A DNA stretch of 64,000 nt from an uncultured virus (IMG/VR IMGVR_UViG_3300046692_000582) (IMGVR_UViG_3300046692_000582), one strand, 5' to 3'; positions 1,289-55,419 are shown, counted from the first letter of the stretch. The notes: generated by a model not told the origin, from the sequence alone. Numbers and translations are program-made.

Positions 1289-1575
1289 TGACTCAGAAAG
1301 TCGATTTGTTGATTTTGACGGGCGGCGGCGCTGAATTGCTTCAGAAAATGGCCCGTACAACTGCTGGTAACGACTTGCTTCAGCGAGCAGCGAGTGTTGT
1401 TCTGCGTGAGGCGTTGGATGACATCACAGTGCATCCTTGTGATGAGGGTGATGACCGTGTGTCGTCCCGCCAGCTTCCGATGTCCATGCAGCAATTGCTG
1501 TTTGCTTTGACGGGATACGAAACGCCAGGAATGGCGCCAATCGAAAACTTGCCGCCCATCAAAACGACATTTTGA
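1288..1575 (+). CDS. hypothetical protein
   Basis: translationally coupled ORF. Confidence 0.55.
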   Translation: MTQKVDLLILTGGGAELLQKMARTTAGNDLLQRAASVVLREALDDITVHPCDEGDDRVSSRQLPMSMQQLLFALTGYETPGMAPIENLPPIKTTF

Positions 1576-1661
1576 TTGACTTAAATAACGGTCAACCTAT
1601 AATAAACATCTATGTATATTGGCCTGCCTCATGGCTAGCTTGGCTATTTTTTGGAGTTGCT

Positions 1662-1886
1662 ATGAGCGTGTACTGTAATTGTCGTCAATGCGGCGGCACA
1701 AGCGATTCGATGTGGTGTGAAAGCGGGATGATGGATGCACAGGAATCTGTATGGAAGGCCGAGCGCCGACTGCGCCAGTTCAATTACATCTTGTTTGGCA
1801 TCATTGTCTTGTTTGTGGCCGCTGCAAGCTTTACTTCTCCTGAGCGCCCGCCTCAACCTGCAAATGCAGCCCATGCCAGTCGATAA
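1662..1886 (+). CDS. small Cys-rich single-pass membrane protein
   Basis: promoter TTGACT-16-TATAAT upstream, GGAG RBS, CxCxxC and one hydrophobic segment. Confidence 0.55.
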   Translation: MSVYCNCRQCGGTSDSMWCESGMMDAQESVWKAERRLRQFNYILFGIIVLFVAAASFTSPERPPQPANAAHASR

Positions 1887-2166
1887 CAAGGATATTTGAA
1901 CAAGCTTGAATCCCCTGTGTTTGCTGACACTGAAGCGGTCAAGTGCCCGATTTGCAGCTTGTTCAAATATCCTTGCAAAACCATCGGCAGCACACCATTT
2001 TGTTGACCCTGCGGATGACTTTTAGCTTTCTCAGCGGATTATCTCTGCGTGAGAGCTGATGCATGTGTGCATTTACAAGGATATTTGAATAAGCAGAAAA
2101 CACCGGGCTTCAAGGGCCTAAGTGCCCATTTTGCAGGGCACAGGGCTTGTTCAAATATCCTTGTAA
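1887..2166. repeat. two tandem elements, each bounded by inverted CAAGGATATTTGAACAAGC arms
   Basis: 1887-1906/1956-1975 perfect 20-bp IR; 2073-2094/2145-2166 21/22 IR; shared internal AAGTGCCC..TTTGCAG. Confidence 0.95.
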
Positions 2167-2172
2167 CGTGCA

Positions 2173-2574
2173 CTACATCGAAGGGCCTTGAGACCAAGTA
2201 TTGGGATTGTCGATCACCAACTCTTGATCATTTGAGATGGGGACGTACGCCCAAATGTGCGTTTCACCCTTTGCAATTGCGTCACGCAATCGGTGATTGC
2301 CATCGCACACCTCCTTATCAAACCCCAAAACAATGGGTGGTCGATTAGCTGAGTTAAGCTTTTCGTATTTTTTCTGTTTGGCTGGGTCGGCAATATTGTG
2401 GTCGGGGCTGCCCGCAACAATTTCGCTGATTAGCACCTTTTCAAGGCGTGCGTGACTGTTGAAATAAAACTCCTCAATGAATTCTTCATCCACATCACCA
2501 GGACTGGAATCGCTTATGTAAGCCGAAATTTCGTGGGCGTCCTTGAGGACGAGGGGCCATCGGGGTTTGGACAT
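2173..2574 (-). CDS. ParB/Srx N-terminal-domain-only protein
   Basis: PPIVL...VCDGNHRLRDAI..GETHIWAYV motif; AGGAG RBS. Confidence 0.75.
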   Translation of the reverse strand: MSKPRWPLVLKDAHEISAYISDSSPGDVDEEFIEEFYFNSHARLEKVLISEIVAGSPDHNIADPAKQKKYEKLNSANRPPIVLGFDKEVCDGNHRLRDAIAKGETHIWAYVPISNDQELVIDNPNTWSQGPSM

Positions 2575-2797
2575 TTATCTCTCCTTCTTTTGTCCAAATT
2601 ATACCATCCTGCTTAGTTCTTTGATCCGCAATGGATGATCTTCTCAAAAAATCATTGCAAATTTGAGGAATAGTTTGTTTTTACCTTTGTTTTTAGGTCT
2701 GGGTAACACTAGATCTGTTGCTGGCCGAGCGACAATAATATTGACTTTATTAGCTGCATTATTTATATTAAATGCAAATCACAGACCGGACAAAGCT

Positions 2798-3865
2798 ATG
2801 CGCCACCTCGTTACCGTTCGCCGAATTTCAGCCATTGAATCCATCCCCAAAGCAGATCGCGTTGTGCTCGCGACCATTGATGCCTGGAATTGCGTGGTTC
2901 CTAAAGGTGATTTTGAGGTTGGCGACCTTTGCGTCTATTTTGAGATTGACAGTTTTTTGGTTCAGGGCCAGGAGCGCTACGAGTTTCTGATGAAGGACGC
3001 GGTTATATGGGAAGGCCAGATCGGCGTTCGCATTCGTACGCGGCACTTCCGTAATCAGGTGTCGCAAGGTCTGGCTCTGCCGCTGTCTAGCTTCCCTGAT
3101 GTCGCCGCTTTGATCCAGGGGCTGGATGCGGTTACCATTCGCGGCATGGACTTCACCGAAGTGGTTGGCGCTCAGAAGTATGAGCGAGCCATTCCAGGTG
3201 AGCTGGCTGGAGCAGTGATTGGCGCAAAGCCGACTTACATTGCCACAACCGGTGAAGAGCGGATTCAGAACATCCCTGAGCACAGGATCGAGCATGCGAA
3301 CAAGCTGTATCATCGCACCGTCAAGCTCGATGGCTATAGCTCAACCATTTTCAATCACTCCCACTGGGGCGAAAGTGGCGTGTGCGGGCACTACTGGTGG
3401 TATGACGAAACCCAACCGCTCGATGAAACTCAGCCAAATCCCTACGTTCAAGTGGCGCTTGAGTCCGGAATTCTGGACGCGGTTCGCCGCTATGGTCGCA
3501 ACATTGCGCTTCAGGGCGAATTGGTGGGGCCGGGCATATGCGACAACATTGACGACTTGCCAGAAAAGCAGTTCCGTCTGTTCAATATCTGGGACATTGA
3601 TAAGAGCCGTTATCTGAGCCAGGACGAGCGTGCCATTATTCTTGCTGATCTCCAGGAGCTAGGGGTTACCGTACTTCAGGTGCCATCGCTTGGCATTGTA
3701 CGATTGGGCGACATGGGCTCCATTGAGGACATGATCAAAGCCGCCACTGGGCCATCGCTCAACCCTAAAGTAAACCGTGAGGGTGATGTCTACAGCGCCG
3801 TCGATGGCAGTGATTCGTTCAAGGTGATTTCCAACGTATTTCTGATGACCAACCCTGATGCCTGA
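2798..3865 (+). CDS. ATP-dependent RNA ligase, DRB0094 (Rnl5)-type
   Basis: N-term LVTVRRISAIESIP..AD, GDLCVYFEIDS; motifs KLDG, QGELVGPGI, FRLFNIWD, REG, SFKVISN. Confidence 0.9.
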   Translation: MRHLVTVRRISAIESIPKADRVVLATIDAWNCVVPKGDFEVGDLCVYFEIDSFLVQGQERYEFLMKDAVIWEGQIGVRIRTRHFRNQVSQGLALPLSSFPDVAALIQGLDAVTIRGMDFTEVVGAQKYERAIPGELAGAVIGAKPTYIATTGEERIQNIPEHRIEHANKLYHRTVKLDGYSSTIFNHSHWGESGVCGHYWWYDETQPLDETQPNPYVQVALESGILDAVRRYGRNIALQGELVGPGICDNIDDLPEKQFRLFNIWDIDKSRYLSQDERAIILADLQELGVTVLQVPSLGIVRLGDMGSIEDMIKAATGPSLNPKVNREGDVYSAVDGSDSFKVISNVFLMTNPDA

Positions 3866-3940
3866 CGGTTGTTTTAAAATGGAGGCGCGGGCATTGCTGG
3901 CGCCTTCCATCACCAGCGTCCTGCTTGCTGCGGAGTTCAA

Positions 3941-4453
3941 ATGAGTACTGTTTCAGAAGCTGTCTCCAAAGCGATCAAGGTTCGCGATCTTGTGTGGAGC
4001 GGACATCTCCCTGTCGAGACATGCCGTATTGCAAGGGATACGGTAATCATCCGTGATGGATGCCGCTTCGAGGTTGTCACTCGCCCCATTGAAAGCGGTG
4101 AGACGGCCAGTAGTCGCGCATTCTTTGACGAGAAGGAGCAGAAGTATGTGTGTCAGTGGAATGACAATGAGATTTTCAATCGATCAAATTTCGCGCTGGC
4201 CCATGCCCTGGGTCATGTAGTCCTCGGCCATGTGAAGAACCCTGCTGTGATTAAGCAGACCTACACATTCAGCTTGAAGTCCGAGAATCTCGAAGACCGT
4301 GCTGCGACTGCTTTTGCGATGGAGCTGCTACTTCCTGCGCGACTTGTTCGTTTCCTTTTTGGGGGCGCAAAAAACGTACAGGAATTGGCGGAAGCCTTTG
4401 GCGTATCAACAACGGCAATCACTCATCGCATCAGAGAGCTGCGCCTTATTTGA
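3941..4453 (+). CDS. ImmA/IrrE (DUF955)-like metallopeptidase homologue, HEXXH altered to HALGH
   Basis: NFALAHALGHVVLGH, FAMELLLP, C-terminal LAEAFGVSTTAITHRI HTH. Confidence 0.85.
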   Translation: MSTVSEAVSKAIKVRDLVWSGHLPVETCRIARDTVIIRDGCRFEVVTRPIESGETASSRAFFDEKEQKYVCQWNDNEIFNRSNFALAHALGHVVLGHVKNPAVIKQTYTFSLKSENLEDRAATAFAMELLLPARLVRFLFGGAKNVQELAEAFGVSTTAITHRIRELRLI

Positions 4454-5115: not shown

Positions 5116-5751
5116 TTAGCGCTCGATGCACTTGAGGCCATTGTGGTGGTAGGAGAACCACCAATAAATCTTGTCTTGCTCATTGCCGTTATAGGTGGTG
5201 ATTTCGCCAGGGAACGCATCCCTGAGGGCCTGCATGGCGAGATCGTGCCTTGTCCAGAGCTTGCCCAGGGCAACAAAGTGCTCATCAATGACCAACAGCA
5301 CAGGCTTGTCCGGCTTGGTCAAGTCCAGCCGGTGGGTTTGGCTGCCGATCTGGGTCAGCAAGCTAATGATGTCCTTGATCGAGAATTTGGCGCGAACAAG
5401 GGCCACCAGAGCAAGGCGGAGTTGTGAATAATCCTCCATGTACGCCAGATACGTTTCACGAGCCCCGACGTCGGAAATTTCTTTTTCATCGAAAAAGTAT
5501 TCGAAATAAACAAAATCACGCCCGACCATCAGCGTAGTGTCTTCGTGCGCAGGCTTTACCCGGTCATAGCAGAGCGTCATCGTCATGCCGTCTGATTTTG
5601 GGTAGCCAATTGGGCTGTAGTCGACGGAGACCGTGGAGCGCCCACTGTCGTTGATTGCCATGCCATAGCTGATCCGGCGATGAAACAACGGATGGGCACC
5701 CATGTTGATGGTTTGAGCAACAGCTTCAACAGTAACATTCGATTCGTTCAA
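5116..5751 (-). CDS. paralogue family A member 1
   Basis: FHR..VDYSPIGY and C-term IYWWF; own promoter TTGACA-17-TATGAT. Confidence 0.8.
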   Translation of the reverse strand: MNESNVTVEAVAQTINMGAHPLFHRRISYGMAINDSGRSTVSVDYSPIGYPKSDGMTMTLCYDRVKPAHEDTTLMVGRDFVYFEYFFDEKEISDVGARETYLAYMEDYSQLRLALVALVRAKFSIKDIISLLTQIGSQTHRLDLTKPDKPVLLVIDEHFVALGKLWTRHDLAMQALRDAFPGEITTYNGNEQDKIYWWFSYHHNGLKCIER

Positions 5752-5809: not shown

Positions 5810-5826
5810 TGTCAATAACAGTGACA
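5810..5826. promoter_or_regulatory. TGTCA-N7-TGACA operator on -35 box
   Basis: TGTCA ATAACAG TGACA. Confidence 0.75.
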
Positions 5827-7338: not shown

Positions 7339-7977
7339 TTACATCGAGCCAGGGGAGCTTTCGGCAATCGAAAGAATTGATGCCCTGCCGTTGTGGTAAC
7401 GGAAACTCCAGTAGGTCTGCTCGCCCAGAGTGGCTTCACGCACCTGATAGGTGATGCCCGGACGCGCAGCGTTCAGATGCGCAGCGGCTGACACTTCGTT
7501 ATCAAAGATCTTGTTCTCGTAGATGACAAAATCATCCGCGAGCTTGACGAAGATCGGAGTTTCCGGATTATCTAGCAGGCTGGTTCGGTCGAGGTCAATT
7601 TGCAGAACTAGATCCATCAGGTCCAGAATCTGCGTTTGGGCTTCCACTTTCTCATTGAGAAAATCCAGTAGCTCAGTGGCATTATTAATCGCAGCCAAAT
7701 AGGCCTGCGTACTCACCAGCCGATCCGCGTCCTTGTCCATGCCGTCACTGCCGCTGAAGCGAAGTTTGTACTCAACAAACATGTCGCCCAGCTTAGGACC
7801 CGTCGTTTGGCCGTAACTGCCCAGCTTGGAGAAAGCTACCTCTACTGTGACTGTATCGGAGACCCAAAAGCCTACCGGTCGGTAGTTGATGAGCAGAAAG
7901 CCGCCGTGAGTTGGATCAAAACGCCACGAAGGTGTACGGGTGAAACGAGGATCCGCTTGAAGTGCAATGGCTTTCAT
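7339..7977 (-). CDS. paralogue family A member 2
   Basis: FTR..INYRPVGFW, VREATLGEQTYWSF; promoter TTGACA-17-TATTAT. Confidence 0.8.
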   Translation of the reverse strand: MKAIALQADPRFTRTPSWRFDPTHGGFLLINYRPVGFWVSDTVTVEVAFSKLGSYGQTTGPKLGDMFVEYKLRFSGSDGMDKDADRLVSTQAYLAAINNATELLDFLNEKVEAQTQILDLMDLVLQIDLDRTSLLDNPETPIFVKLADDFVIYENKIFDNEVSAAAHLNAARPGITYQVREATLGEQTYWSFRYHNGRASILSIAESSPGSM

Positions 7978-8035: not shown

Positions 8036-8052
8036 TGTCAATACTACTGACA
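8036..8052. promoter_or_regulatory. TGTCA-N7-TGACA operator on -35 box
   Basis: TGTCA ATACTAC TGACA. Confidence 0.75.
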
Positions 8053-8629: not shown

Positions 8630-8787
8630 GAGGCAATCACTCTGTAAAAATCAGCACTGTTATAGCTTTATTATACGCGGTTTAAGGGCTGTTCGATCAT
8701 CGCGAAATGTCTTTTTATGACATTCACATTGACATCACTGTGTGGTGTGTCATAATGAACCCATTACAAATGCCAAGGAAAATCCAA

Positions 8788-9612
8788 GTGACCACGCTCA
8801 ACGCGCCGACTACTGTAGCTCCTACATGGTTTACTCGTGACGGAAGCGCTGTGCCTTCTGACAAGGTGTCAGGTGTTGATTTGGTCAAGGGCAAGGCTTT
8901 TTACAGCTTCATCCCAATGTGTGGCCGCTGTGGCGGTCAAGGTGGGAGCCAAGCGTGGTCTCATACTGGGTACGTGTGTTACGAGTGTAATGGCACCCGT
9001 GTTGGTCCACGGCGCACCCTTGAAGTGTTTCTGGAGTCGCGTCTGGCGGTCCTAAACGCAAGTCGTGACAAGCGCCGTGCAAAGGCTCAGGCCAAGCTTG
9101 AAAAAGCAGAGGCGGATCGTCTTGATGAGTTGCGTGGGCCTTGGCAGGCCTGGAAGAACGACAATGCCGATCTGATTGCAGAAATGCGCAAGATTGCTGA
9201 CTCCAACAAGTTCATTGGCGACCTTCTCGCGAAGCTAGATGCGATTAATATCCTGAGCGAGCGCCAGATCACCGCCGCACAAAAGTGCGTAGATGATGCG
9301 CACATCAAGGCTCAGGAACGCATCAGCAATGAGCAGTCCAAGTGGATTGGCAAAGTGGGGGATCGGGCTGAGTTTACATTCACGGTTGAGCGTATTATTG
9401 ACTGGACCAAGCCTGATGACTATCCACTGATCTATCGCTACCTGCACATCTGTAAGGATGCTAGCGGCAATGCGATCAAGTACGTAGGCAATGCGGCTTG
9501 CATGCCGGGCGAGGGTGAAACTGTAACGCTAAAAGCGACAGTCGCAGCCCATGAAACTTATGATGGCATCAAACAAACAGTTCTTTCCAGGCCAGCCATT
9601 ATCAAAAAATGA
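8788..9612 (+). CDS. CxxCxGxG zinc-finger protein with probable C-terminal OB fold
   Basis: CGRCGGQG / CYECNGT; GTG 8788 after AAGGA; promoter TTGACA-16-CATAAT. Confidence 0.7.
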   Translation: MTTLNAPTTVAPTWFTRDGSAVPSDKVSGVDLVKGKAFYSFIPMCGRCGGQGGSQAWSHTGYVCYECNGTRVGPRRTLEVFLESRLAVLNASRDKRRAKAQAKLEKAEADRLDELRGPWQAWKNDNADLIAEMRKIADSNKFIGDLLAKLDAINILSERQITAAQKCVDDAHIKAQERISNEQSKWIGKVGDRAEFTFTVERIIDWTKPDDYPLIYRYLHICKDASGNAIKYVGNAACMPGEGETVTLKATVAAHETYDGIKQTVLSRPAIIKK

Positions 9613-12040: not shown

Positions 12041-12802
12041 ATGAAGCGCTCTGTATTAATTTTTGCTTTATTGTCATCTTTAGTAGCATCACTCGCTGGT
12101 TGCAGCTCAGAATCTCCGAATGCGCCAACATCAACCACTTCATTTCGGGCTCCAGATTTTAACAAGCCAAAAGGGCTCAAAAAGGATGAAATAGGGTTTA
12201 GGAGTTCGGGAAACGACTGCGTTTTTTACGCGAAGGGTGGTTACGTGTCATTTAAATGCACGGATTTGCAGGAAGCGGATCTTGTTCAGGGGAGAGATAA
12301 TGATTTGTCGCTCACCAAAAAGGCCAAGCTGCTTGGCAAAGATTTAATACCTGTGGCTACCGCAGCCGGTCAATTTAAAGATCCTCTGGTCGTGGATATT
12401 TTTACCTCTCGAAAAGATGGTGCCTGGATTTACGCTGAAGCCAAGTCGCACATGGCTGTTGCTTCCGGCCTGCCCGCCAGCCAATCATTTTGTGGTAATG
12501 GCGTTTGCTACCTTGTTGCCGTTGAGCGCACTCAGGGGACTTCTGCACTCGAAGAGCTGCCCAGCCTAGGGCAATGCCTCTGGCGCATCGACAAGGCTGT
12601 GCCAGGGGCCTCCGTAACTGGAAAGTGCTTGGGAGATGAGTGGCTGATTAGGCTTCGCGTGCCAGGAGAAAAACAAGCCCCGCTTCCTTTACGACCAACG
12701 CCAACGCCAACGCCAACGCCAACGCCAACGCCAACAGTGAAGGCGGTTCAAGATCAAGAGATCAAGCCTATTCAGCCAATCGCACTTAAAAAAGCAGCGT
12801 AA
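12041..12802 (+). CDS. lipoprotein with Pro-Thr repeat
   Basis: lipobox LAGC; (PT)7 near C-terminus. Confidence 0.8.
   Translation: MKRSVLIFALLSSLVASLAGCSSESPNAPTSTTSFRAPDFNKPKGLKKDEIGFRSSGNDCVFYAKGGYVSFKCTDLQEADLVQGRDNDLSLTKKAKLLGKDLIPVATAAGQFKDPLVVDIFTSRKDGAWIYAEAKSHMAVASGLPASQSFCGNGVCYLVAVERTQGTSALEELPSLGQCLWRIDKAVPGASVTGKCLGDEWLIRLRVPGEKQAPLPLRPTPTPTPTPTPTPTVKAVQDQEIKPIQPIALKKAA
12695..12736 (+). repeat. (CCAACG)6+CCAACA coding microsatellite
   Basis: seen directly. Confidence 0.95.
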
Positions 12803-13540: not shown

Positions 13541-14047
13541 TCAGGCCTTGATTGGCTTGTACTGCTCATACCGATAAATAATCCAGTCAAGGTAGTGCTC
13601 CACCTCGACGATGAAGGTGAAGTCATCACTGGTTTGAAGCTCGTCACCGTTGCCGGTTTTGAACTCCACCGCGATGTCGCCTTCTGGCGAGAGGAAAACA
13701 TTAATCCCGTCAGTGATTTCGACGATACCATTCGATGATCCCGCAGGCTTAACAATGCGTTTGACGTTAAACCCTTTTGAGACCAATTGATCGGCCATTT
13801 TCTGTAGCGTAACCGGGTTCATTTTCTTGGATGCCCCAAATTTCTGGAAGCACTCGACAAAAATGGTGGGGGTTTTCTCGACCAGCTTTTCTTTGATCAG
13901 TTGCAGAAGAACTGCACGAACTTCACGCCAGTCCTTCACCTCGATGCTTTTACCCACCTGATTTGAAATTTCAGTCCAGTGTTTCGGCTCATCGTTGATG
14001 GTAGACAGAAGAATTTCACGGCATTTGGCTTGATCAGCTGGGCTCAT
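13541..14047 (-). CDS. hypothetical protein, possible N-terminal winged helix
   Basis: helix-helix-LIKEKLVEK pattern; own promoter upstream. Confidence 0.6.
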   Translation of the reverse strand: MSPADQAKCREILLSTINDEPKHWTEISNQVGKSIEVKDWREVRAVLLQLIKEKLVEKTPTIFVECFQKFGASKKMNPVTLQKMADQLVSKGFNVKRIVKPAGSSNGIVEITDGINVFLSPEGDIAVEFKTGNGDELQTSDDFTFIVEVEHYLDWIIYRYEQYKPIKA

Positions 14048-14310
14048 TGGGCACCTGAGAATTCGTTATTTGGTTACTGGGTGATGGATTTATCATAGCT
14101 CATTAATGTCAACATGACAAACATATTTTCCGTAATCTTATGCTGATGTACGAGATTGCTTTTTACGGGTGACTGACTTCAATGTTGTACATGAACACCT
14201 GTTGCTTTTGACTATGATATTGCTTAATCGCATAGATCTACATATAATATTATGAATTTGCGGCCAGATAGATCGCTGCTTGCCATTTCTAGGATCACAG
14301 GGAGATCACC

Positions 14311-15594: not shown

Positions 15595-16065
15595 CTATTT
15601 TTTCTGAGGAGTGTAAATGAAATCGAAGCGCCAAATCTCAAAGCCCGACGCTTGATTGCAGCAATCCACAATCTTTACCAGTTCGAGGTTTTCGTCACGG
15701 TGATAGTCACGCAAGAACGCCTGAATGGCGATGGCTGATCCACTACGGAAGCCGCCGGATCCGATGGGCAGTGACTTTGCGAAACAGGCGTCAAAATGTT
15801 CCCGATTCCAGCTTGCAAGGTGATCGGTGTATGAGGTGTCCAGGCGTTTTCCTTCCTCAAGCACGATTGTGCACGGATTGGTGCGTCCTCGGTATTTGGA
15901 GTTCACCCAGCGCACGTAATCGCTGAAGTTGTAGGGGTACTCGCGCTTGGAGCGTTCGATACGATTGCCTTCTGCATCGTGATTTCGACTGTCGCGGTAA
16001 ATCCCAAATTCCTCGTCGTGGATGACAAATCCATCACAATCAATGAACATCTGGCGTCGCGGCAT
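15595..16065 (-). CDS. phage-type hypothetical protein
   Basis: AGGA RBS, promoter TTGACA-16-TATAAT. Confidence 0.7.
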   Translation of the reverse strand: MPRRQMFIDCDGFVIHDEEFGIYRDSRNHDAEGNRIERSKREYPYNFSDYVRWVNSKYRGRTNPCTIVLEEGKRLDTSYTDHLASWNREHFDACFAKSLPIGSGGFRSGSAIAIQAFLRDYHRDENLELVKIVDCCNQASGFEIWRFDFIYTPQKK

Positions 16066-16118
16066 TGTTTATGTCCTGATAATTAACTATTTAGAAATTA
16101 TAATTAAAAAGCCAGCAA

Positions 16119-16135
16119 TGTCAATGCTGCTGACA
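16119..16135. promoter_or_regulatory. TGTCA-N7-TGACA operator on -35 box
   Basis: TGTCA ATGCTGC TGACA inside a 13-bp-arm IR. Confidence 0.75.
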
Positions 16136-16956: not shown

Positions 16957-16973
16957 TGTCAATATCATTGACA
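16957..16973. promoter_or_regulatory. TGTCA-N7-TGACA operator on -35 box
   Basis: TGTCA ATATCAT TGACA. Confidence 0.75.
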
Positions 16974-19152: not shown

Positions 19153-19215
19153 GTGAGGCCCGATGGATTCAATAAAGGAGATTTTATTGACGGCCTTCCT
19201 TTATGTCAATGTGAT

Positions 19216-19554
19216 TTACACTTGAGCAGTTGAAATGCAATCAGTGTGCTTATCAATGTTTCCGCCCAGGCAATTGCTTTTCCATTCAGGCCACGTGGCC
19301 ACCAGCGCAGAAGCGGCTTTGCAGTGCTCTCTCAGGCTTCGTGGAGACTCTGCCTCGTCTACCGGCGTACTGACGATGCAAGCACCCGCCAGAAGCGCAT
19401 CAATGGCCGCGAGCTGCGCATCCAAAACCGCTTGGTGATCAGGTCGATACGCAGCCAGGAGCTGTCGATGACTTTCGGCCTCGTCATGCGTGTAATCACG
19501 CAGGGTCTCGATCATTGATCGAGGGATCCCATTGAGAAATTCAGTAGTCATCAT
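19216..19554 (-). CDS. hypothetical protein
   Basis: AGGAG RBS; VATWPEWK motif. Confidence 0.65.
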   Translation of the reverse strand: MMTTEFLNGIPRSMIETLRDYTHDEAESHRQLLAAYRPDHQAVLDAQLAAIDALLAGACIVSTPVDEAESPRSLREHCKAASALVATWPEWKSNCLGGNIDKHTDCISTAQV

Positions 19555-21231: not shown

Positions 21232-21248
21232 TGTCAATGTCATTGACA
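21232..21248. promoter_or_regulatory. TGTCA-N7-TGACA operator
   Basis: TGTCA ATGTCAT TGACA. Confidence 0.7.
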
Positions 21249-22578: not shown

Positions 22579-22689
22579 GTATTTTCCTCTTAATGTATGG
22601 AAATTGTACAAGTAAATTAGAGTAGCGTCAATGACAGTGACTCTTTAATTAGCCCTTATTAATCCTCCACGCATTTTCCATGAGGTCGG

Positions 22690-23758: not shown

Positions 23759-23919
23759 GAAGGTATTTCCAACATCATACGTTCTGTCATTATTATTGTC
23801 AATTTAATGCAGCTTGATTTTTTAACAACAGAATGTGCTGCGGGTATATAGTCAGCATTATTGACTTTATTATCATCACTGATAAAATGGACTCCTACAC
23901 CCTTCAGGCACAAAATCTC

Positions 23920-27466: not shown

Positions 27467-27933
27467 GATTAATTCCGAAATAAGATCTGGGCGGGCTCAA
27501 CATTCTCACTCAATTAAAGCAATTTGGTTTAGCGCTTGAATAAGATTAATTGTACAGGATTCATTAAGAGTGTCAATCAAAATGACAAAATATTCAAAAG
27601 AAAAGTGAAGGTGAGATTCTTGTGAGAGCGAGAGGGGGAAGGAGCGTAGAAAGAGCGGCTGGATAGATCAGCGACGCCTAGGCGTCGCTGTTTTTCTGAC
27701 TCTTCATATGTAAAACTTCAAGGATAATCGACGACCATCGTGGTTCGTCCAAGCCAAGAATCTCGGCCAAATCCCTGCGAGCTTGATCGCAACCAGACAT
27801 CATCAATTCTGCATAGTCTCTTTGCGCGTCACAATCCTCAAACTCGCGAGCAGTGACCATGGGCTCAGCCAACTTGCCGAGCTTGCCATTTGCCAGCTTG
27901 ACACGCGTCACGGCCTTCACGGCCTTCACGGGA

Positions 27934-29685: not shown

Positions 29686-29793
29686 GACATGGGGCTCCAG
29701 ATGTTGAGTCGAAATTGTACCAAATTTAGAGTGCGTGTCAATGACGCTGACTGTAAAATGATTTTCGGAAGCCTTATTTTTTGTACAAATTTA

Positions 29794-29833
29794 CGTCATT
29801 TGCATTGACATAATATCCGACAATCCATATACT
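29794..29833 (+). promoter_or_regulatory. sigma70 promoter with operator
   Basis: CGTCA TTTGCAT TGACA; TTGACA-17-TATACT. Confidence 0.75.
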
Positions 29834-33852: not shown

Positions 33853-34092
33853 GATTAGGTCCCTGTCTGAACATCCTTTAAGACTAGCGGCCAGTGACGA
33901 ATGCTGCAATCCATTTGCTAAGCGAGGTCCGTCAGGCCACAGAAATGACGGCTATTACTGTCGTTCAGCCAAATGGCCAGGGTGCTTAGTTCTGTCTCGC
34001 CTTCACCTTTTATCGGGATGTCATTGTCATTGACTTTTTTGTTGATTTTGGTATATTTGCTTTATTAAATACAAACCTATCGGAGACTCAAA

Positions 34093-35655: not shown

Positions 35656-35752
35656 GGAGCATATAATTACCGAACAACACGTCATTTAATTTGACACTTC
35701 TAATTTTATAGGTATAATATCCCCACAACTAAAGCTCTTGTGGTGACTCCTG

Positions 35753-39419: not shown

Positions 39420-39947
39420 ATGCCCTGCTTGACTTATTTGGGATCAATTGAGATTGCTGAAGACCTAAAACTTGAATGTCGCGCTCTCACCAAACAAGTG
39501 CAGCAGGAGGGTCTTTATGGCGTCACCATTGTCAAAAAGAATCGCACTCGCGAGGAAATGAATGCCATCGTGAAAAAGGTCGGTTTAGATCTGGGGACAT
39601 TGATCAATGCAAATCTAGTCAGCGCTGATATCATCATGTCCGCGCCACTGGTATTGCATCATGACAACAACCTTTGGCAAAAATACGGCGTCCTGATCAT
39701 GGTTGATGTTCCTGATGGTTCCAGCCTTTTTCAAAAGAAAAGTGATTCCATTCCCATCAAATCAGGCGACGTCTTGAGCATCAGGTATCCGATGTATCAC
39801 GGTCTGACCATGCCGAACGAAAGTGATCGGCTGATCTTTATCTCCGTGGATTTTCACGTGGGGAAAAAAGTAATGAATGAGACGTGGCAATCAAAGATCG
39901 CTGCATGGCATGACAACACCTCAAAAGAAGTTGCCATGTCATTTTGA
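39420..39947 (+). CDS. possible 2OG-Fe(II)/cupin-fold protein
   Basis: HHD...GDVL...YHG. Confidence 0.45.
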   Translation: MPCLTYLGSIEIAEDLKLECRALTKQVQQEGLYGVTIVKKNRTREEMNAIVKKVGLDLGTLINANLVSADIIMSAPLVLHHDNNLWQKYGVLIMVDVPDGSSLFQKKSDSIPIKSGDVLSIRYPMYHGLTMPNESDRLIFISVDFHVGKKVMNETWQSKIAAWHDNTSKEVAMSF

Positions 39948-40007
39948 TTGACATTTTTTCATGGCTCGATATAATTACATCCATTAATTCTGCCTTCGAG
40001 AATATGG

Positions 40008-46396: not shown

Positions 46397-46547
46397 TGTC
46401 CTTTTTTTACGGGCGGGAGCGCAGTAAGCGCCCTGCCCGTTTTAAGGCGATGAAATTACTATTGTCACGTTGACAATATAAAAACCGAACCCATAATAAA
46501 AGGAAATCATACCTTGCTGTCAGCACAGCCATTATTGTGGAGAAAAC

Positions 46548-46775
46548 ATGAAAATTTCAACAATTGCGCTCATTGCGAGCGTTGGCATTATGACAGGTGT
46601 TCCGGCTTTGGCTTTGGGAGCTGACGGCGGTGATCGCACGTTTGCGCGGATGATGGAGCACACTGAGCGAGCCATGGCGGCATACCGCGCCAAGCAGGCC
46701 GAGCTGGAGCGCCAGAAACAAAAGTCCAATGAAGGAAGTGCGCTGGTTCTGCCTGTCATTTACGTTGATGGCTAG
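46548..46775 (+). CDS. PtrA-like small periplasmic protein 1
   Basis: signal peptide then ADGGDRTFARMM..AMAAY, the PtrA N-terminal signature. Confidence 0.8.
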   Translation: MKISTIALIASVGIMTGVPALALGADGGDRTFARMMEHTERAMAAYRAKQAELERQKQKSNEGSALVLPVIYVDG

Positions 46776-46948
46776 GTTTACCATTCTTGGACGGGCAAAA
46801 CTTAAAATATTTATGTTTACCAGTTTGACGTTGCCCTGAAGCGGACCCATAATTTACACATCAAAGAGAGTTTGGGCCACACATAATCCGCCTCCCTGCG
46901 AACACATAAATCGGCATTTCGCCACTTGCTCTATAAAGGAAGATTCTC

Positions 46949-47149
46949 ATGAAAAATGCATGCATTGCTCTGATTGCTGGTCTGACCCTGATGGCTGGTG
47001 CTTCGGCTTTCGCCAAAGACGGTGGTGGTGCAGACGGTGGTAGCCGTACCTTCGAGCTGTCCTCTGCGCATACCCAGGAGGCCATGGACGCCTACGCCGC
47101 CAATCAGGCTACTCACAGCGCCACCCAGGTTGCCTCCGTCCAGAAGTAA
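46949..47149 (+). CDS. PtrA-like small periplasmic protein 2
   Basis: AFA-KDGGGADGGSRTF..AMDAY..QVASVQK. Confidence 0.8.
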   Translation: MKNACIALIAGLTLMAGASAFAKDGGGADGGSRTFELSSAHTQEAMDAYAANQATHSATQVASVQK

Positions 47150-47431
47150 GGCCGGTCGCTGAAAAAGCCCGGCAAGCATGGGCGGGCTTTTGAGGCAGCA
47201 TTATTAATGCACAATTTTTGTGGCAAGAATTTTTGGATTTCCTTAAAGGCGAATCCCTTCGGGGAAGATCCAGCCCGTTTGCTCCTGTTAGGCGGGTGCA
47301 AAATAAATGATTGTGGCATTGACATTTATTTAATATCTGCCTATACTAAACACATCAAAGAGAAGGCGCATCCTCTCTGCGATACCAAATTTAACCGGCA
47401 TTTGCCGATCTGCTCTGAATGGATAAACCCG

Positions 47432-47692
47432 ATGAAAAATGCATTTGTTGCTCTGGTTACTGGTCTGGCCCTGATGGCTGGCGCTTCGGCTTTCGCAGGT
47501 GAAGGCGGCGGTGCAGACGGCGGTAGCCGTACTGCTGATCTGGCGCAGTCCCATGCCAAGCAAGCCACTGACGCCTACGCGGCCAAAGAGGCGGCGAAAA
47601 ATGGCACCCAGGTTGCAGTCGTGCAAAAGGGCGGTAAGGTTGGCAAGGCCAAGACCGACGCCAAGCCTGAGTCCGAAACTGCCCAGAACTAA
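47432..47692 (+). CDS. PtrA-like small periplasmic protein 3
   Basis: AFA-GEGGGADGGSRTA; start placed by alignment with paralogues. Confidence 0.8.
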   Translation: MKNAFVALVTGLALMAGASAFAGEGGGADGGSRTADLAQSHAKQATDAYAAKEAAKNGTQVAVVQKGGKVGKAKTDAKPESETAQN

Positions 47693-47966
47693 GGGCAGTT
47701 TCACCCAAAAGCCCGCGATTATTCGCGGGCTTTTTTGTTTCCGCGATTTGTTTGCCTAAGAGCGCCGACCTGCTCCCTGTCTTTTTACAATAACGACATT
47801 CCAGCCGCCACTTAAAAAACAGTACAAATAGCTGATAATTTAATTGACATATAATATGAATCTATCTACAATAGCCCCATCAACGAGAGACATGGCAAAT
47901 CAGCCTTTCTCCCGGCGAATCACTAAATACTCGGCAATTTGCCAATCCATTTAAAAGGAACAAAGC

Positions 47967-48167
47967 ATGAAAAAAGCATTCGTAGCAATGATCGCTGGTA
48001 TGACCCTGATGGCTGGCGCTTCGGCATTCGCCAAAGATGGCGGTGGTGCTGACGGCGGTAGCCGCACCTTCGATCTGTCAGCGGCCCACACCAAGCAAGC
48101 CATGGACGCCTACGCGGCCAACAAAGCGGCACAGGGTAACACCCAGGTCGCCACCGTCCAAAAGTAA
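47967..48167 (+). CDS. PtrA-like small periplasmic protein 4
   Basis: same signature. Confidence 0.8.
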   Translation: MKKAFVAMIAGMTLMAGASAFAKDGGGADGGSRTFDLSAAHTKQAMDAYAANKAAQGNTQVATVQK

Positions 48168-48180
48168 GGTCGGTTGCCAG

Positions 48181-48212
48181 AAAAAAGCCCGCGATGATTC
48201 GCGGGCTTTTTT
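48181..48212 (+). terminator. repeated intrinsic terminator of the PtrA-like array
   Basis: AAAAGCCCGCGA-TGAT-TCGCGGGCTTTTT; related copies at ~47162, 47707, 48602, 49058. Confidence 0.9.
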
Positions 48213-48389
48213 GTTGCATGAATTTTTTGTGCAAATAAAAGTGTGAAAAAAGATGATATTTTAATTGACACTTATTATAGATTAATCTATAATAAGCACA
48301 TCAAAGAGAGACAAGGCCCTTGTTAGCCAGTCTCCCTGCGAACAACCAAAATCGGCATTTTCGCCATTGCTCTCCATAGGAAGACCCTC

Positions 48390-48587
48390 ATGAAGAAAGT
48401 TCTCGTTGCTGTAGTTGCTGGCATGACCCTGATGGCTGGCGTTTCGGCTTTCGCCAAAGATGGCGGTGGCGCTGACGGCGGTAGCCGCACCTTCGATCTG
48501 TCGATGGCGCGCAACCAGCAGGCCATGACTGCCTATGCCGCCAATCAGGCTGCCCGTGGCACCCAGGTCGCGACCGTCCAAAAGTAA
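48390..48587 (+). CDS. PtrA-like small periplasmic protein 5
   Basis: same signature. Confidence 0.8.
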   Translation: MKKVLVAVVAGMTLMAGVSAFAKDGGGADGGSRTFDLSMARNQQAMTAYAANQAARGTQVATVQK

Positions 48588-48831
48588 GACTCGGTTGCCA
48601 GAAAAAGCCCGCGATGATTCGCGGGCTTTTTGTTGTCTCGGTTAAATAATAATCTCAATAAGGCATTCCGGTGCAATGCAACAATATCATTATATATTTT
48701 CAATCTATCTATTGACGCTCTTTCTATAATTTTGTACAATGTGCGCATCAAAAAGAGACAGTGACCTTCGCGGTAAACCTCTTTTGAAATCAAAATAGGC
48801 ATATCCGCCGCTCACTCTCTAGGGGTTAATT

Positions 48832-49050
48832 ATGAAAAAAGTTCTCGTTTCTCTGGTTGCTGGTCTGACTCTGATGGCCGGGGCTTCTGCCTTTGCAAAA
48901 GATGGTGGTGCTGATGGTGGTAGCCGTACCGCTGACCTGAGCGCTGCTCACACCAAGCATGCAATGGAAGCGCATAAGGCCAAGCATGCCGCGCACGTCA
49001 AGAAGGAAGCTCAGCCTTCTGCCGAAAAAGCTGTAGCAGTACAAAAGTAA
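48832..49050 (+). CDS. PtrA-like small periplasmic protein 6 (His-rich)
   Basis: same signature; HTKHAMEAHKAKHAAH. Confidence 0.8.
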   Translation: MKKVLVSLVAGLTLMAGASAFAKDGGADGGSRTADLSAAHTKHAMEAHKAKHAAHVKKEAQPSAEKAVAVQK

Positions 49051-50289: not shown

Positions 50290-50718
50290 TTACGCGTCGT
50301 TCACATTGAAGTGTTCGGAGATGCTGTAGCCCTTGACGGTCTCCAGACGGCCATTGGAGAAGTGCACCGTCACGTTGCCGTACAGGCCTTCATCATCCTC
50401 TGAGTTGCGATTGCTGCGAATGTAGAAGTCAACAATGGCGCGACCGTCTTCAGTCAGGGGCACTCCGCTGAGGAAATTTGACCAGTCAAGGGTGTCGGCC
50501 AAATCAGTATCGCCCCAGGTGCCATCGTTCATCTTGGTGACGAGCGCGATGTTAATGCTTTCGCTGACACTGTCTTCATCAACATTGTGGCGTAGGCCAG
50601 GGCAGAGATCGACCTGAGTTGCTTTGAGCTTGGGCTGGGACTCTGCGGCGGCTGCGGCCTTGATCAGTGCGCATTCGGCTTTTGAGGGCATCCAAATTGA
50701 AGCATTACTCATCATCAA
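50290..50718 (-). CDS. hypothetical protein
   Basis: 142-aa ORF after structured leader. Confidence 0.65.
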   Translation of the reverse strand: MMMSNASIWMPSKAECALIKAAAAAESQPKLKATQVDLCPGLRHNVDEDSVSESINIALVTKMNDGTWGDTDLADTLDWSNFLSGVPLTEDGRAIVDFYIRSNRNSEDDEGLYGNVTVHFSNGRLETVKGYSISEHFNVNDA

Positions 50719-50866: not shown

Positions 50867-50883
50867 TGTCAATGTCAGTGACA
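50867..50883. promoter_or_regulatory. TGTCA-N7-TGACA operator on -35 box
   Basis: TGTCA ATGTCAG TGACA; minus-strand TTGACA-16-TATCAT. Confidence 0.75.
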
Positions 50884-54041: not shown

Positions 54042-54186
54042 AATGATCCTTAATATTTCATGACCAATTATATCACTGAGCACGCAATTTTGTCAGCAGC
54101 ATCGGCCTTGGCCTTGGCATACAGATTCGGATTTTGATGGTTGATATCAGAAGGTGTAACGAGGGGATATTGCAGGAAATAAGTTG

Positions 54187-54262
54187 TGGCTCCGTGACCA
54201 GGACTCGAACCTGGGACCCAATGATTAACAGTCATTTGCTCTACCGACTGAGCTATCACGGA
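54187..54262 (-). tRNA. tRNA-Asn (GTT)
   Basis: 76-nt cloverleaf TCCGTGATAGCTCAGTCGGTAGAGC...GTT...GGTTCGAGTCC..GGAGCCA with encoded CCA. Confidence 0.98.
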
Positions 54263-54346
54263 ACTAATTTCTCAACTTTGACTATCTTATATTAACCTTA
54301 TTAAATATGCAAGAAGATTTTGTTTGATTAAGGTCACGATGTACTT

Positions 54347-54700
54347 AAAAAAGGGGCTTTCGCCCCTTGGTGTATTGCTAGCCGTTGCCTAGCGAGATCG
54401 ACTATGCCCCTTATGGACTGACCTCGATCAATGGTGCCGCACGGTCCCACACTTGCTTATACAGTTCTCGATATTTTAAGTCGAAAACTCAGCCACCGTG
54501 CCTTGGCGTTGCCAGTGCACGGTAGGGCAGGTCGCTGTTACCTCGTCGTAGACGAACTATCTCTAGTAGCGGGGTGCGACCCTAAGGCCCCTGTAACCAC
54601 CCTTGTCCTGCACAATGTTACAGCATTGCCTGAACAGCCATGTGCTTCATGTTTTTTGACCATCGGGAATATGAATGGTCTGGCTCCTTGTGAGAGCAGA
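54347..54700 (-). ncRNA. candidate stand-alone ~350-nt structured RNA
   Basis: extended -10 TGATATAAT, about 10 stems plus pseudoknot, terminator GGGGC-GAAA-GCCCC-T6. Confidence 0.65.
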
Positions 54701-55048
54701 GTTTGTATTATATCAGCCTTACAATGGACCCACAATAGCTTGAAGTTAAGTTAATGATTCCGGAGACTGCTGTTTCAGTGGCGTCCATGATTCAAAATCC
54801 ACATGCAATTCGCTGTGGACAAATTGACGCTTAAGACATGGGGTCAAAGGACTCAAGTGACATTGCCTTCAATGCCCTGCCCACTACACAAATTGGCCAT
54901 TTTACCGTTTGCTAGGATTTTTCTTCCCTGCGCAGGCGTCACGTCCATTGTCATCTAATTCCAGATAATATATAAACTATTAATTAAATTGTCAATCTAC
55001 AGGATTTCCTCCCTGCATGATTGAACCTCCATCGAGTTTGGAATTAAT

Positions 55049-55384
55049 ATGAGCAAATTAAAGATTATCAAGGCATTCCTGGCTGCGTCATTTATAGCTG
55101 CTGCATGTCATTCTCAAGCTGCGGGGGCCTTTGACTCTCCCGGCAGCCACATAGCAAATTGGGTTAACAATCGCGACTTCAGAACACTGAGCGTTAAAGA
55201 TGTCACCTGTGCACCAAATGGCCTGGGGTATTGGGTGTTTGGTGGTGAGGTTGGAGCTGATTTGGGCGATTATGCCCTTTCAGCCAGCGTCGCAGTTGGT
55301 GTCAATGGAAAGCCCATGACTTGTGATCAGGCAAGGGCCGCTTTGTCGGCTTTTCTTGACGCTGGCTCTAAAAAGGCAAATTAA
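55049..55384 (+). CDS. secreted hypothetical protein
   Basis: signal peptide, Cys pair. Confidence 0.65.
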   Translation: MSKLKIIKAFLAASFIAAACHSQAAGAFDSPGSHIANWVNNRDFRTLSVKDVTCAPNGLGYWVFGGEVGADLGDYALSASVAVGVNGKPMTCDQARAALSAFLDAGSKKAN

Positions 55385-55402
55385 GCGCCATACAAATGCC
55401 TT

Positions 55403-55419
55403 TGTCATTTGTATTGACA
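55403..55419. promoter_or_regulatory. TGTCA-N7-TGACA operator on -35 box
   Basis: TGTCA TTTGTAT TGACA; TTGACA-17-TATCAT. Confidence 0.75.

Follow-up and report, generated by a model that had tools for sequence, protein, structure and literature searches.

What could place the same inverted repeat on the -35 box of promoter after promoter along a single stretch of DNA? A preliminary description of the 64-kb window (the whole stretch of DNA that was analysed) had proposed that TGTCA-N7-TGACA is built into about 18 promoters as the target of a single dimeric repressor or activator, and here we follow up that proposal.

Enrichment and distribution of the dyad

Across the 64-kb window, TGTCA-N7-TGACA had 9 matches relative to 0.09 expected, a number reached in 0 of 100 shuffles, and GTCA-N7-TGAC had 16 relative to 0.95 expected, no shuffle giving more than 4. 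When all 4-mer dyads, inverted or direct, were counted without bias at spacings of 0–14, GTCA-N7-TGAC took the top rank (16 vs. 1.7 expected, z 10.9). All 15 exact or GTCA-N7-TGAC copies reported earlier were present in the sequence; a 16th GTCA-N7-TGAC copy, missing from the earlier list, lies at 57377 within an ORF, has no promoter and appears to be a chance occurrence. Four copies with one mismatch (1565, 2730, 8718 and 19204) were also confirmed, each in promoter register, with arms CGACA at 1565 and 2730, TGACA at 8718 and TGTAA (promoter orientation) at 19204. One-mismatch copies were not enriched by count in the 64-kb window, and two further ones (1102 and 28017) fell within ORFs; it is promoter context, not number, that supports these four. 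Both N3-spaced variants (14107 and 46463) were found on promoters. The sites are listed below with strand, -35 hexamer, spacer, -10 hexamer and the gene that each promoter is predicted to drive.

1565..1581, plus strand: one-mismatch CGACA-N7-TGACT; TTGACT, 16 bp, TATAAT; drives small gene 1662-1886
2730..2746, plus strand: one-mismatch CGACA-N7-TGACT; promoter of the RNA ligase gene (2798-3865; Pfam/PHROG RNA ligase)
5810..5826, minus strand: exact TGTCA-N7-TGACA; TTGACA at 5815-5810, 17 bp, TATGAT; drives 5116-5751
8036..8052, minus strand: exact dyad; TTGACA, 17 bp, TATTAT; drives 7339-7977
8718..8734, plus strand: one-mismatch TGACA-N7-TGACA; TTGACA, 16 bp, CATAAT; gene in the 8707-9612 frame, later start
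14107..14119, minus strand: N3 variant TGTCA-ACA-TGACA; TTGTCA as -35, 17 bp, TATGAT; drives 13541-14047
16119..16135, minus strand: exact dyad; TTGACA, 16 bp, TATAAT; drives 15595-16065
16957..16973, minus strand: exact dyad, 7-bp arms TGTCAAT/ATTGACA; TTGACA, 17 bp, TATACT; drives 16202-16900
19204..19220, minus strand: one-mismatch, arm TGTAA; TTGACA, 17 bp, TAAAAT; drives 18721-19152
21232..21248, minus strand: exact dyad, 7-bp arms; TTGACA, 17 bp, GATAAT; drives small gene ending at 20971
22626..22642, minus strand: GTCA-N7-TGAC; TTGACG, 17 bp, TACAAT; drives 22276-22578
23850..23866, plus strand: GTCA-N7-TGAC; TTGACT, 16 bp, TAAAAT; drives gene in the 23833-24510 frame
27571..27587, minus strand: exact dyad; TTGACA, 16 bp, TACAAT; heads eight minus-strand genes (27466 down to 24599)
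29736..29752, minus strand: GTCA-N7-TGAC; TTGACA, 16 bp, TACAAT; drives 29437-29685
29794..29810, plus strand: GTCA-N7-TGAC; TTGACA, 17 bp, TATACT; drives HD-domain gene 29858-30505
34019..34035, plus strand: TGTCA-N7-TGACT; TTGACT, 16 bp, TATATT; drives 34093-34305 and the genes after it
35680..35696, plus strand: CGTCA-N7-TGACA; TTGACA, 16 bp, TATAAT; heads six-gene run 35753-39947
39937..39953, plus strand: exact dyad; TTGACA, 16 bp, TATAAT; drives 40008-41198
46463..46475, plus strand: N3 variant TGTCA-CGT-TGACA; TTGACA, 16 bp, CATAAT; drives 46548-46775, the first family-A-like gene
50867..50883, minus strand: exact dyad; TTGACA, 16 bp, TATCAT; drives 50290-50715
55403..55419, plus strand: exact dyad; TTGACA, 17 bp, TATCAT; drives 55472-55975

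The sites at 29736 and 29794 are arranged back-to-back, and in the N3 variant at 14107 the second arm falls within the promoter spacer. Flanks and spacers vary between dyad sites and the arms reach no further than 5–7 bp; the 17-mers at 27571 and 39937, on opposite strands, are identical. Clear copies were confined to 1.5–40 kb and 50–55 kb of the window, while promoters at 46–49 kb and 57–64 kb carried a degenerate arm only, and given this uneven spread a single regulon for the whole replicon would be an extrapolation from 64 kb.

Most genes behind dyad promoters are ORFans. Among the targets named earlier, the HD-domain gene stood, with its GTCA-N7-TGAC site, and the RNA ligase gene stood in part, by virtue of a one-mismatch arm; family A showed a weak arm only (TGAT/TGTT). 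In the five tandem family-A units, each gene of which is followed by a terminator, TG(A/T) at -46 to -44 was retained in four of five and the flanking bases had diverged.

Promoter register and symmetry

A total of 38 strong promoters with no more than one mismatch per hexamer were identified in the window, using sigma70-type criteria (-35 TTGACA, 16–18 bp spacer, -10 TATAAT and a purine start 6–8 nt past the -10). Predicted starts had A+1 in 27 of 38 and C-1 in 25 of 38, and in most promoters an SD and start codon lay 18–30 nt downstream of the predicted start site; judged by sequence, all 38 would be sigma70-type promoters. In every one of the 15 copies listed earlier, one arm was TTGAC(A/T/G) with a -10 (at least 5/6) 16 or 17 bp on, as the preliminary description had claimed. 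The register was fixed, such that 15 of the 16 GTCA-N7-TGAC copies and the four one-mismatch copies all spanned -46 to -30. A good operator-like dyad was present on ~19 of the 38 strong promoters, and another ~10 retained only T-46, G-45, T/A-44 and T-40.

When the 38 promoters were aligned on the -35 box, conservation was two-fold symmetric about -38 (pairs -46/-30, -45/-31, -44/-32, -43/-33, -42/-34 and -40/-36), with G-45 in 32, T-44 in 25, C-43 in 21, A-42 in 23, T-40 in 28 and A-36 in 27. At -41, which mirrors T-35 (the first T of the -35 box, critical for sigma), A occurred in 10 of 38 promoters and in 2 of 15 exact copies; because -41 was not conserved, the upstream arm cannot be taken for a second or divergent -35 box. 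The argument that the -35 box explains one arm only is upheld by this pattern, since the arm mirrors TGACA and not the first T of TTGACA, and a cause beyond the -35 box is supported also by the T-40/A-36 pair, which lies outside the hexamer. The site is two-fold symmetric, and its position is fixed relative to the core elements at many promoters.

The arm was found with the best promoter cores, not the weak ones. There were 25 TTGACA-N16-18-TANNNT sites in the 64 kb, 21 of which had a -10 with at most one departure from TATAAT. Among promoters without the GTCA arm, G-45 was kept in 17 of 23 and T-40 in 16 of 23, and this persistence without C-43/A-42 is equally compatible with a weak half-site and with an asymmetric contact upstream.

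Comparison with promoters outside the window

If the arm were an ordinary companion of TTGACA promoters, it should be equally common elsewhere. It was found at 11 of the 25 TTGACA-N16-18-TANNNT sites in the window relative to none of the 33 that E. coli K-12 has (Fisher p = 2e-5), which served as a generic sigma70 reference and may not represent the host of the element. The distant relatives searched (a metagenome locus, two jumbo phages and three megaplasmids of 0.8–1.0 Mb) lacked the arm, as did 20 strong promoters of the related locus L120. The dyad itself was at chance level in L120, in pBASL58 and pMPPla107 (both Pseudomonas megaplasmids), and in a Variovorax 0.8-Mb plasmid. Relatives at 90–95% identity were short contigs only. 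A search of the open literature with the motif in several notations gave no match.

Candidate regulators in the window

Scans of the ~114 window ORFs against Pfam, PHROGs and NCBIfam did not reveal a cognate regulator, in agreement with the preliminary description, which had not identified one in the window; they returned only three DNA-binding candidates. The clearest is a full-length homologue of CapS (24599-25153; E 7e-32), a dimeric STAS-wHTH repressor that recognises TTAA half-sites spaced by N1 or N10 (PDB 9Z71; PMC13373217; EMBO J 2026). Its recognition helix is the same as that of CapS and the DNA-contact residues are conserved, so this protein probably reads TTAA rather than TGTCA. 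Its gene lies in the eight-gene run behind site 27571, and also has its own promoter, which lacks the dyad, and no capK gene adjoins it; it is probably not the dyad regulator. The dyad was rejected as a CapS operator: it resembles CapS sites in that the palindromes overlap promoters, but it is TGTCA at N7, not TTAA at N1 or N10. The second candidate, a 108-aa protein (25491-25817) in the same 27571-headed run, is a possible winged-helix protein with weak fold matches only (Foldseek E at least 0.06, TM ~0.47), and the third is an M78 peptidase with a C-terminal HTH.

Competing explanations for the dyad

A single dimeric DNA-binding protein would best explain a dyad that is both symmetric and phased with promoters. 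We infer, giving this reading about an even chance of being right, that one dimeric sequence-specific protein, probably encoded by the element, uses the 17-bp dyad as its operator and would repress through the -35 box. The upstream arm might instead be a docking site at -46 to -40 for an activator or RNA polymerase-associated factor, supplied by either the host or the element and in contact with sigma region 4 or the alpha C-terminal domain, or an unusual upstream element of the host polymerase, its mirror likeness to the -35 box being secondary. The arm lies upstream of the -35, where activators and alpha bind, the bases at -53 to -47 are A-rich as in UP elements, and the retention of G-45 and T-40 in promoters without GTCA would suit such a contact. 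(Two sites depart from the upstream placement: the 14107 variant and a copy in direct repeat at 23785.) However, with 21 of 25 TTGACA sites also having a strong -10, the core elements are already near consensus, so these promoters need no activator; the arm accompanies the best cores and does not compensate for weak ones, contrary to what an activator or UP-like role would suggest. The T-40/A-36 pair and the favoured A-30 suggest that a single protein reads both halves, -35 bases included, and E. coli TTGACA sites do without the arm. We consider a positive promoter element of either kind rather unlikely. The UP consensus consists of A/T tracts at -59 to -38, and the arm was rejected as an UP element, being TGTCA with an invariant-like G-45 and A-rich only at -53 to -47.

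It is less likely still that the dyad is the operator of a host-encoded global regulator, through which the element would couple its genes to the physiology of the host. Such a regulator would account for the lack of a recognisable one in the window, but the chance-level counts in L120, pBASL58, pMPPla107 and the Variovorax plasmid speak against it, as does the lack of a literature match. Crp/Fnr boxes are TGTGA-N6-TCACA, with TGTCA-N6-TGACA variants, of 16 bp centred near -41.5, and are mostly activator sites at promoters with a poor -35. The dyad resembles them as a TGT...ACA-type inverted repeat near -40, but differs in its N7 spacing, its odd 17-bp length, its centre at -38 or -37 and its consensus -35, and was rejected as a Crp/Fnr box.

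We regard as very improbable that the palindrome is a nucleic-acid structure or recombination cassette, combining a stem-loop or terminator with an early-type promoter and spread by cassette copying. The model would be the PeSL cassettes of T4-type phages, which have near-perfect TTGACA-N17-TATAAT promoters, terminators and small ORFan genes in plastic regions (PMC2839356; PMC4122927) and shuffle these ORFan genes (PMC4122927). The window shares this layout, with near-consensus sigma70 promoters and terminators before small ORFan genes. At site 16119, the sole site with extended arms, the -35 box is part of a 14-pair stem, which together with the T run behind it makes a hairpin resembling a terminator for 16202-16900, the gene upstream; a 44-bp piece (16099-16142) recurs in another metagenome with unlike sequence on both sides, one relative skips 101 bp around site 16957, and two sites share their 17-mer. 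Against this, 16 of 17 sites fold weakly (-0.4 to -5.6 kcal/mol, as ssDNA), the exception being 16119, and a structure upstream of the start site would not be in the promoter's own transcript. The short arms with variable flanks and spacers also disfavour this reading, and the terminator–promoter cassettes of L120 have no dyad. Changes at -30 were compensated at -46 in 1 of 3 class I sites, or 1 of 5 with the two one-mismatch TTGACT sites included (TTGACT-AGTCA matches; TTGACG-AGTCA, TTGACT-TGTCA and two cases of TTGACT-CGACA do not). In PeSLs, the stem-loop is a G/C-rich terminator apart from the promoter, whereas the dyad is A/T-rich, sits on the -35 and is rarely stable; with a stable stem and T run in 1 of 17 dyads and terminators lying elsewhere, the dyad was rejected as a PeSL.

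A proposed repressor–operator model and its closest parallels

For the dimeric repressor, the operator consensus would be (t)GTCA-n-T-nnn-A-t-TGAC(a). Its downstream half-site would be the TGACA of a consensus -35 hexamer, and a bound dimer covering -46 to -30 would exclude sigma70 region 4, thereby repressing near-consensus promoters that may otherwise be constitutively strong. The preliminary description had left repressor and activator open; the former appears much more likely, because the cores hardly deviate from consensus and the -35 box doubles as the downstream half-site. Degenerate arms (T-46, G-45, T/A-44, T-40) may give weaker, graded control. The regulator gene is probably on the element, either outside the window or unrecognisable inside it.

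The IncP proteins KorA and KorB are plasmid-encoded global repressors. For plasmid R388, six repressors and a predicted transcription burst on entry into a new cell are described (PMC3937220). As in these systems, operators predicted here from sequence are repeated at many strong promoters that would be held down; unlike them, one operator type occurs at ~19 promoters per 64 kb, fused to the -35 in one register, and relative to R388 the element is ~20 times larger and most target genes are ORFans. Operators of phage P1 C1 are scattered over the genome and asymmetric, and lambda-type operators are two-fold symmetric, 17 bp long and overlap promoters, lambda itself having six sites at two loci. 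The dyad is likewise dispersed on promoters for one predicted repressor and 17 bp long, but differs from P1 in its symmetry and from lambda in its many loci; no immunity-region layout was visible in the window.

The parent contig, a soil element, is 876,603 bp long and is probably a megaplasmid. The best plasmid relatives of its HD protein are on 0.9–1.0 Mb Pseudomonas megaplasmids (42–44% identical to the pBASL58 and pMPPla107 copies), and one 69-residue domain is common to the element and pMPPla107/pBASL58-type megaplasmids; in the same comparison the 800-aa protein and RNA ligase had no match. That family is described as ~0.9–1.0 Mb in size, with mostly hypothetical genes, many tRNAs and common gene content (PMC6482414); one tRNA only was found within the window. 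This context suggests a very large plasmid-like element. Contig size and the megaplasmid relatives of the HD protein make it reasonable to picture an expression burst upon arrival in a new host: a transmissible giant element entering a repressor-free cell would express these genes in a burst, until the repressor builds up and silences them collectively. The dyad pattern is real and lineage-specific, and the regulon that it predicts is of a familiar kind. If the model is true, many genes without assigned function would be switched on and off together by one regulator.

Enrichment and promoter context of the dyad

Compared to dinucleotide-preserving shuffles of the 64-kb window, TGTCA-N7-TGACA was found 9 times where 0.09 copies were expected, and its core, GTCA-N7-TGAC, 16 times where 0.95 were expected and no shuffle exceeded 4. 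Among all 4-mer inverted and direct dyads with spacings of 0–14, the core ranked first (16 vs. 1.7 copies, z = 10.9), and its place at the top of an exhaustive enumeration indicates that the motif was not cherry-picked. All 15 exact or core copies listed in the preliminary description were correct in the window sequence; a 16th core copy at 57377 lies within an ORF, without a promoter, and is probably due to chance. The four one-mismatch copies (1565, 2730, 8718 and 19204) and the two N3-spaced variants (14107 and 46463) that had also been proposed were found as well. One-mismatch copies as a class were not enriched in the window, and two more of them (1102 and 28017) fall within ORFs; it is promoter context that supports those four.

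Both strands were scanned for TTGACA-like and TATAAT-like hexamers 16–18 bp apart with at least 5/6 matches in each, and 38 strong promoters, most of them intergenic, were obtained. ORF calling with a self-trained model gave ~114 small genes on both strands, and at most of the 38 promoters a Shine-Dalgarno-like sequence and start codon followed 18–30 nt past the predicted start, which had C at -1 in 25/38 and A at +1 in 27/38. The operons headed by these promoters comprised one to eight genes. GTCA occupied exactly positions -45 to -42 in 15 of the 38, and four more had it with one mismatch, giving 19/38 with a recognisable upstream arm (the distal half-site of the dyad).

Bases upstream of the -35 hexamer in the 38 strong promoters (alignment on the -35 hexamer; positions relative to the predicted start)
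Position, base, promoters
-46, T, 19/38
-45, G, 32/38
-44, T, 25/38
-43, C, 21/38
-42, A, 23/38
-40, T, 28/38
-36, A, 27/38

These positions are related by a two-fold axis at -38, about which -46 to -42 mirror A-30, C-31, A-32, G-33 and T-34 of the hexamer and -40 pairs with -36. The arm thus mirrors TGACA and not TTGACA, and the T-40/A-36 pair lies outside the bases read by sigma70.

Two further promoter-linked features were observed. Family A is a set of tandem small-gene paralogues:

46548–49050 (plus strand): five tandem genes encoding secreted proteins of 65–72 aa, with a sixth, divergent copy at 46548

Its products carry a signal peptide and then a KDGGGADGGSRTF... motif, and each gene has its own consensus promoter, a conserved ~88-nt leader starting CACATCAAAGAGAG and, at its end, a strong terminator. 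The window also contains 10 copies of the 8-bp palindrome TTGTACAA, where 1.0 would be expected (e.g. at 29318, 29781, 57861 and 59842); three or four copies form TGn-extended TACAAT -10 boxes, the others lie in promoter spacers or just upstream of promoters, and the palindrome may be a second operator type.

Alternative explanations for the upstream arm

That a -35 box accounts for one arm only, as proposed previously, was borne out in E. coli K-12, which served as a generic sigma70 reference in place of the host: the GTCA arm accompanied 0 of 33 TTGACA-N16-18-TANNNT sites in 4.64 Mb. The window contains 25 such sites in 64 kb, with the arm in 11 and G-45 in 20 (arm frequency 11/25 vs. 0/33, Fisher p = 2e-5). 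A divergent promoter was also rejected as the source of the arm. Position -41, the mirror of the sigma-critical T-35, is A in only 10/38 promoters and in 2 of the 15 exact copies, and no -10 lies on the far side. The arm therefore does not serve as another -35 box facing the opposite way.

It is unlikely, in our estimate, that the arm is an activator or polymerase-contact element. In its favour, G-45 and T-40 are retained even where the symmetry is incomplete: the 23 promoters lacking GTCA kept G-45 in 17 cases (binomial p = 1e-6 vs. 0.25) and T-40 in 16, their arms reading TG(A/T)T(T/A), often TG(A/T)TTGTG, and such degenerate arms prevail at 46–49 kb and 57–64 kb. For the operator reading, constraint is seen in family A, whose five tandem units keep TG(A/T) at -46 to -44 along with the -35 and -10 while adjacent bases diverge. 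A bound dimer would be expected to repress, since its downstream half-site coincides with the -35 hexamer and the promoter cores are near consensus. Control by a host regulator, with the dyad as its operator, appears quite improbable. To our knowledge, none of the sites of Fis, LexA, PhoB, CRP and NtcA fits the N7 geometry.

Least probable of all, and by our reckoning very improbable, is a nucleic-acid structure or a recombination cassette of the PeSL kind. In its favour, the arms of the dyad at 16119 lengthen into a 14-pair stem with a T run behind it (16111–16143), a terminator-like hairpin that serves as the terminator of gene 16202–16900 and encloses the next promoter's -35 box and dyad, and a 44-bp piece of this region (16099–16142) was found in a different context in another rhizosphere metagenome. 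A related metagenome sequence also skips 101 bp at 16940–17042, a stretch that covers the dyad promoter at 16957 and a neighbouring plus-strand -35 box at 17007. Against it, 16119 was the exception on single-stranded DNA folding, the other 16 of 17 dyads being weak (-0.4 to -5.6 kcal/mol). Deviations at -30 were matched by a change at -46 at one of three class I sites (22631, 23861 and 34030, all with the core dyad), or one of five when two one-mismatch TTGACT sites were added, and such rare compensation argues against selection for base-pairing.

Distribution of the dyad among relatives

The dyad was shared by none of the comparators, namely two jumbo phages, three megaplasmids and a metagenome contig (L120). 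Going by sequence length, every one of the three megaplasmids should have ~12–15 core copies; the 64-kb window contains 16.

Copies of the dyad and its core in comparison genomes
Genome, motif, copies
Serratia phage BF, TGTCA-N7-TGACA, 0 in 357 kb
Erwinia phage Hallingskeid, TGTCA-N7-TGACA, 4 in 366 kb
pBASL58, TGTCA-N7-TGACA, 1 in 904 kb
pBASL58, GTCA-N7-TGAC, 18 in 904 kb
pMPPla107, GTCA-N7-TGAC, 28 in 972 kb
Variovorax plasmid, GTCA-N7-TGAC, 16 in 816 kb

L120 (20.6 kb, GC 37%) encodes an HD-domain protein 73% identical to that of the window (gene 29858–30505) and has 2/114 window proteins in common; the dyad was absent from its 20.6 kb and from all of its 20 strong promoters. Those promoters are near-consensus, mostly TTGACT-N17-TATAAT, and several come right after a G/C stem and T-run terminator in a PeSL-like layout. 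A second HD-protein locus on metagenome contigs (L121) also had no dyad. Its absence from all comparators indicates that the operator is lineage-specific, which is what an element-specific repressor-operator pair would predict.

Other searches returned little. Megablast of 20 kb of the window against phages and plasmids gave no match, no related loci were found in viral contigs with the 800-aa and 377-aa proteins, and an alignment of the 377-aa family found none in genome and metagenome contigs. The dyad-plus-promoter pattern matched once per viral contig among the matches listed. A peat RNA library and a second rhizosphere DNA run yielded short contigs of 80–99% identity that cover parts of the window; occurrence in the RNA library does not show transcription. 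No paper on the dyad motif was found in the literature searched, nor anything relevant on phage early promoters.

pBASL58 has a promoter-embedded dyad of its own, GTATA-N7-TATAC, at four clustered promoters in an ssb/MvaT region (L122, record 136760–140793), with 5 copies in all 904 kb. It is a local analogue of the window design, except that its downstream arm is the -10 (TATACT) whereas that of the window is the -35.

Gene content and nature of the replicon

Nearly all window genes are ORFans, and Pfam, PHROG and NCBIfam scans gave few matches: two RNA ligases, an M78 peptidase, CinA, the HD-domain protein, a YbdG-like MscS channel, a DUF4325 STAS-like protein and a CapS-like winged-helix (wHTH) protein. 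There is one tRNA-Asn. A 360-aa protein of the window is encoded on an 876,603-bp contig, the stretch being found in a rhizosphere metagenome run, and its relatives (31–38% identity) come from contigs that reach 1.06 and 1.14 Mb; a 69-residue domain of it also matches pBASL58. The HD protein is 42–44% identical to proteins of the Pseudomonas megaplasmids pBASL58 (904 kb) and pMPPla107 (972 kb) and ~34% identical to copies on ~0.8-Mb Variovorax plasmids and Rak2/Eneladus-type jumbo phages. The 800-aa protein and RNA ligase had no match in the megaplasmid comparison. A megaplasmid family described in PMC6482414 spans 0.90–0.97 Mb, with mainly hypothetical genes and 44–54 tRNAs. On these comparisons, the replicon is more probably a giant plasmid-like element than a phage; hallmark genes that would prove it were not among the matches. 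Six head-to-tail ACGCCA hexamers (the final unit ACGC only) were also seen at 12698–12731, inside ORF 12245–12802.

Candidate regulators

Three proteins of the window were considered as regulators of the dyad:

24599–25153 (minus strand): CapS-like protein
25491–25817 (minus strand): basic 108-aa protein
3941–4453 (plus strand): M78/IrrE-type metallopeptidase

The first is a full-length homologue of CapS (PDB 9Z71, E = 7e-32; 9Z72, E = 2.5e-17), which is described as a homodimer of the STAS-wHTH type that represses anti-phage immune operons until CapK phosphorylation releases it; the E. roggenkampii protein binds TTAA half-sites with N1 or N10 spacing (PMC13373217). In the window protein the recognition-helix stretch is identical, the Asn, Lys and Gly-Gly DNA contacts are kept (N145, K151 and G169-170), and the phospho-serine is still there (D-A-S-F, matching the V. 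cholerae protein). The dyad is absent from its own promoter, and no CapK-like kinase gene was found beside it. With a TTAA-type recognition helix and a promoter without the dyad, it was judged an unlikely regulator and, on sequence, appears a poor candidate for TGTCA-N7-TGACA. One might speculate that a solitary CapS carried by a mobile element serves as a decoy through which CapKS-controlled defence operons of the host stay repressed. Directly downstream of an unassigned 203-aa ORF, a DUF4325 STAS-like protein is encoded (96 aa, Pfam E = 9e-13; both in 61200–62141, minus strand); this gene and the CapS-like one suggest that the element carries signalling modules of the partner-switching type.

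The gene of the 108-aa protein is one of eight in a run led by the dyad promoter at 27576, and a set of 1.8 billion representative proteins includes only four homologues, all small. Its model had a pLDDT of 36.5 from the single sequence and 73.8 from a 5-sequence alignment, and it matched MarR, PadR and RosR-type winged-helix regulators weakly in Foldseek (E at least 0.06, TM ~0.47), with no match at E = 0.001 or better; the model makes this protein a lead only as a dyad-binding regulator. The metallopeptidase (Pfam E = 2e-12), with a C-terminal HTH-like segment, is also a candidate. It is similar to proteases of the CapP/ImmA class, which cleave repressors upon DNA damage; no gene for a partner HTH repressor adjoins it.

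Proposed mechanism and implications

Judged from the sequence, the dyad set is a real, lineage-specific regulon whose cognate regulator is only at the candidate stage. The pattern is observed directly; that a protein binds it, whether binding lowers or raises transcription, and where the gene for that protein lies are inferred from it. A dimer over -46 to -30 is predicted to exclude sigma region 4, and 19 good operators together with about ten degenerate ones would allow graded control. On a transmissible element this could yield a transcription burst after transfer, followed by tight negative feedback. Such an architecture, with strong promoters under repression, resembles that of plasmid R388, for which strong promoters, tight negative feedback and a transcription burst after transfer are described (PMC3937220).

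Dispersed operators of a mobile-element repressor that overlap promoters are already known; this case is unusual in how many promoters are involved, in how strictly the operator is fused to consensus -35 boxes and in its location on a probable 0.9-Mb element made up of ORFans. In its broadest form, which we put forward tentatively and regard as doubtful, a ~0.9-Mb soil megaplasmid-like element would place a large share of ~1000 mostly ORFan genes under one repressor, with the operator in the -35 of consensus promoters, as a genome-wide 'reboot switch' of ~200–250 operators (an extrapolation of 19 sites per 64 kb). If true, no larger regulon of a single repressor would be known from a mobile element; every promoter would fire in a naive cell before collective silencing, and the half-site TGACA, the target of sigma region 4, would make the repressor a direct sigma competitor at each site.

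As an operator, the dyad is a clean natural case of the -35 hexamer doubling as one of the half-sites. Plasmids of ~1 Mb carry about a thousand genes of no known role, and how hosts tolerate their arrival is poorly understood. A common operator at consensus-strength promoters offers an experimental handle, since the 17-mer could capture the regulator, and the regulon would define co-expressed ORFan genes and predicts a testable burst-then-silence after transfer.
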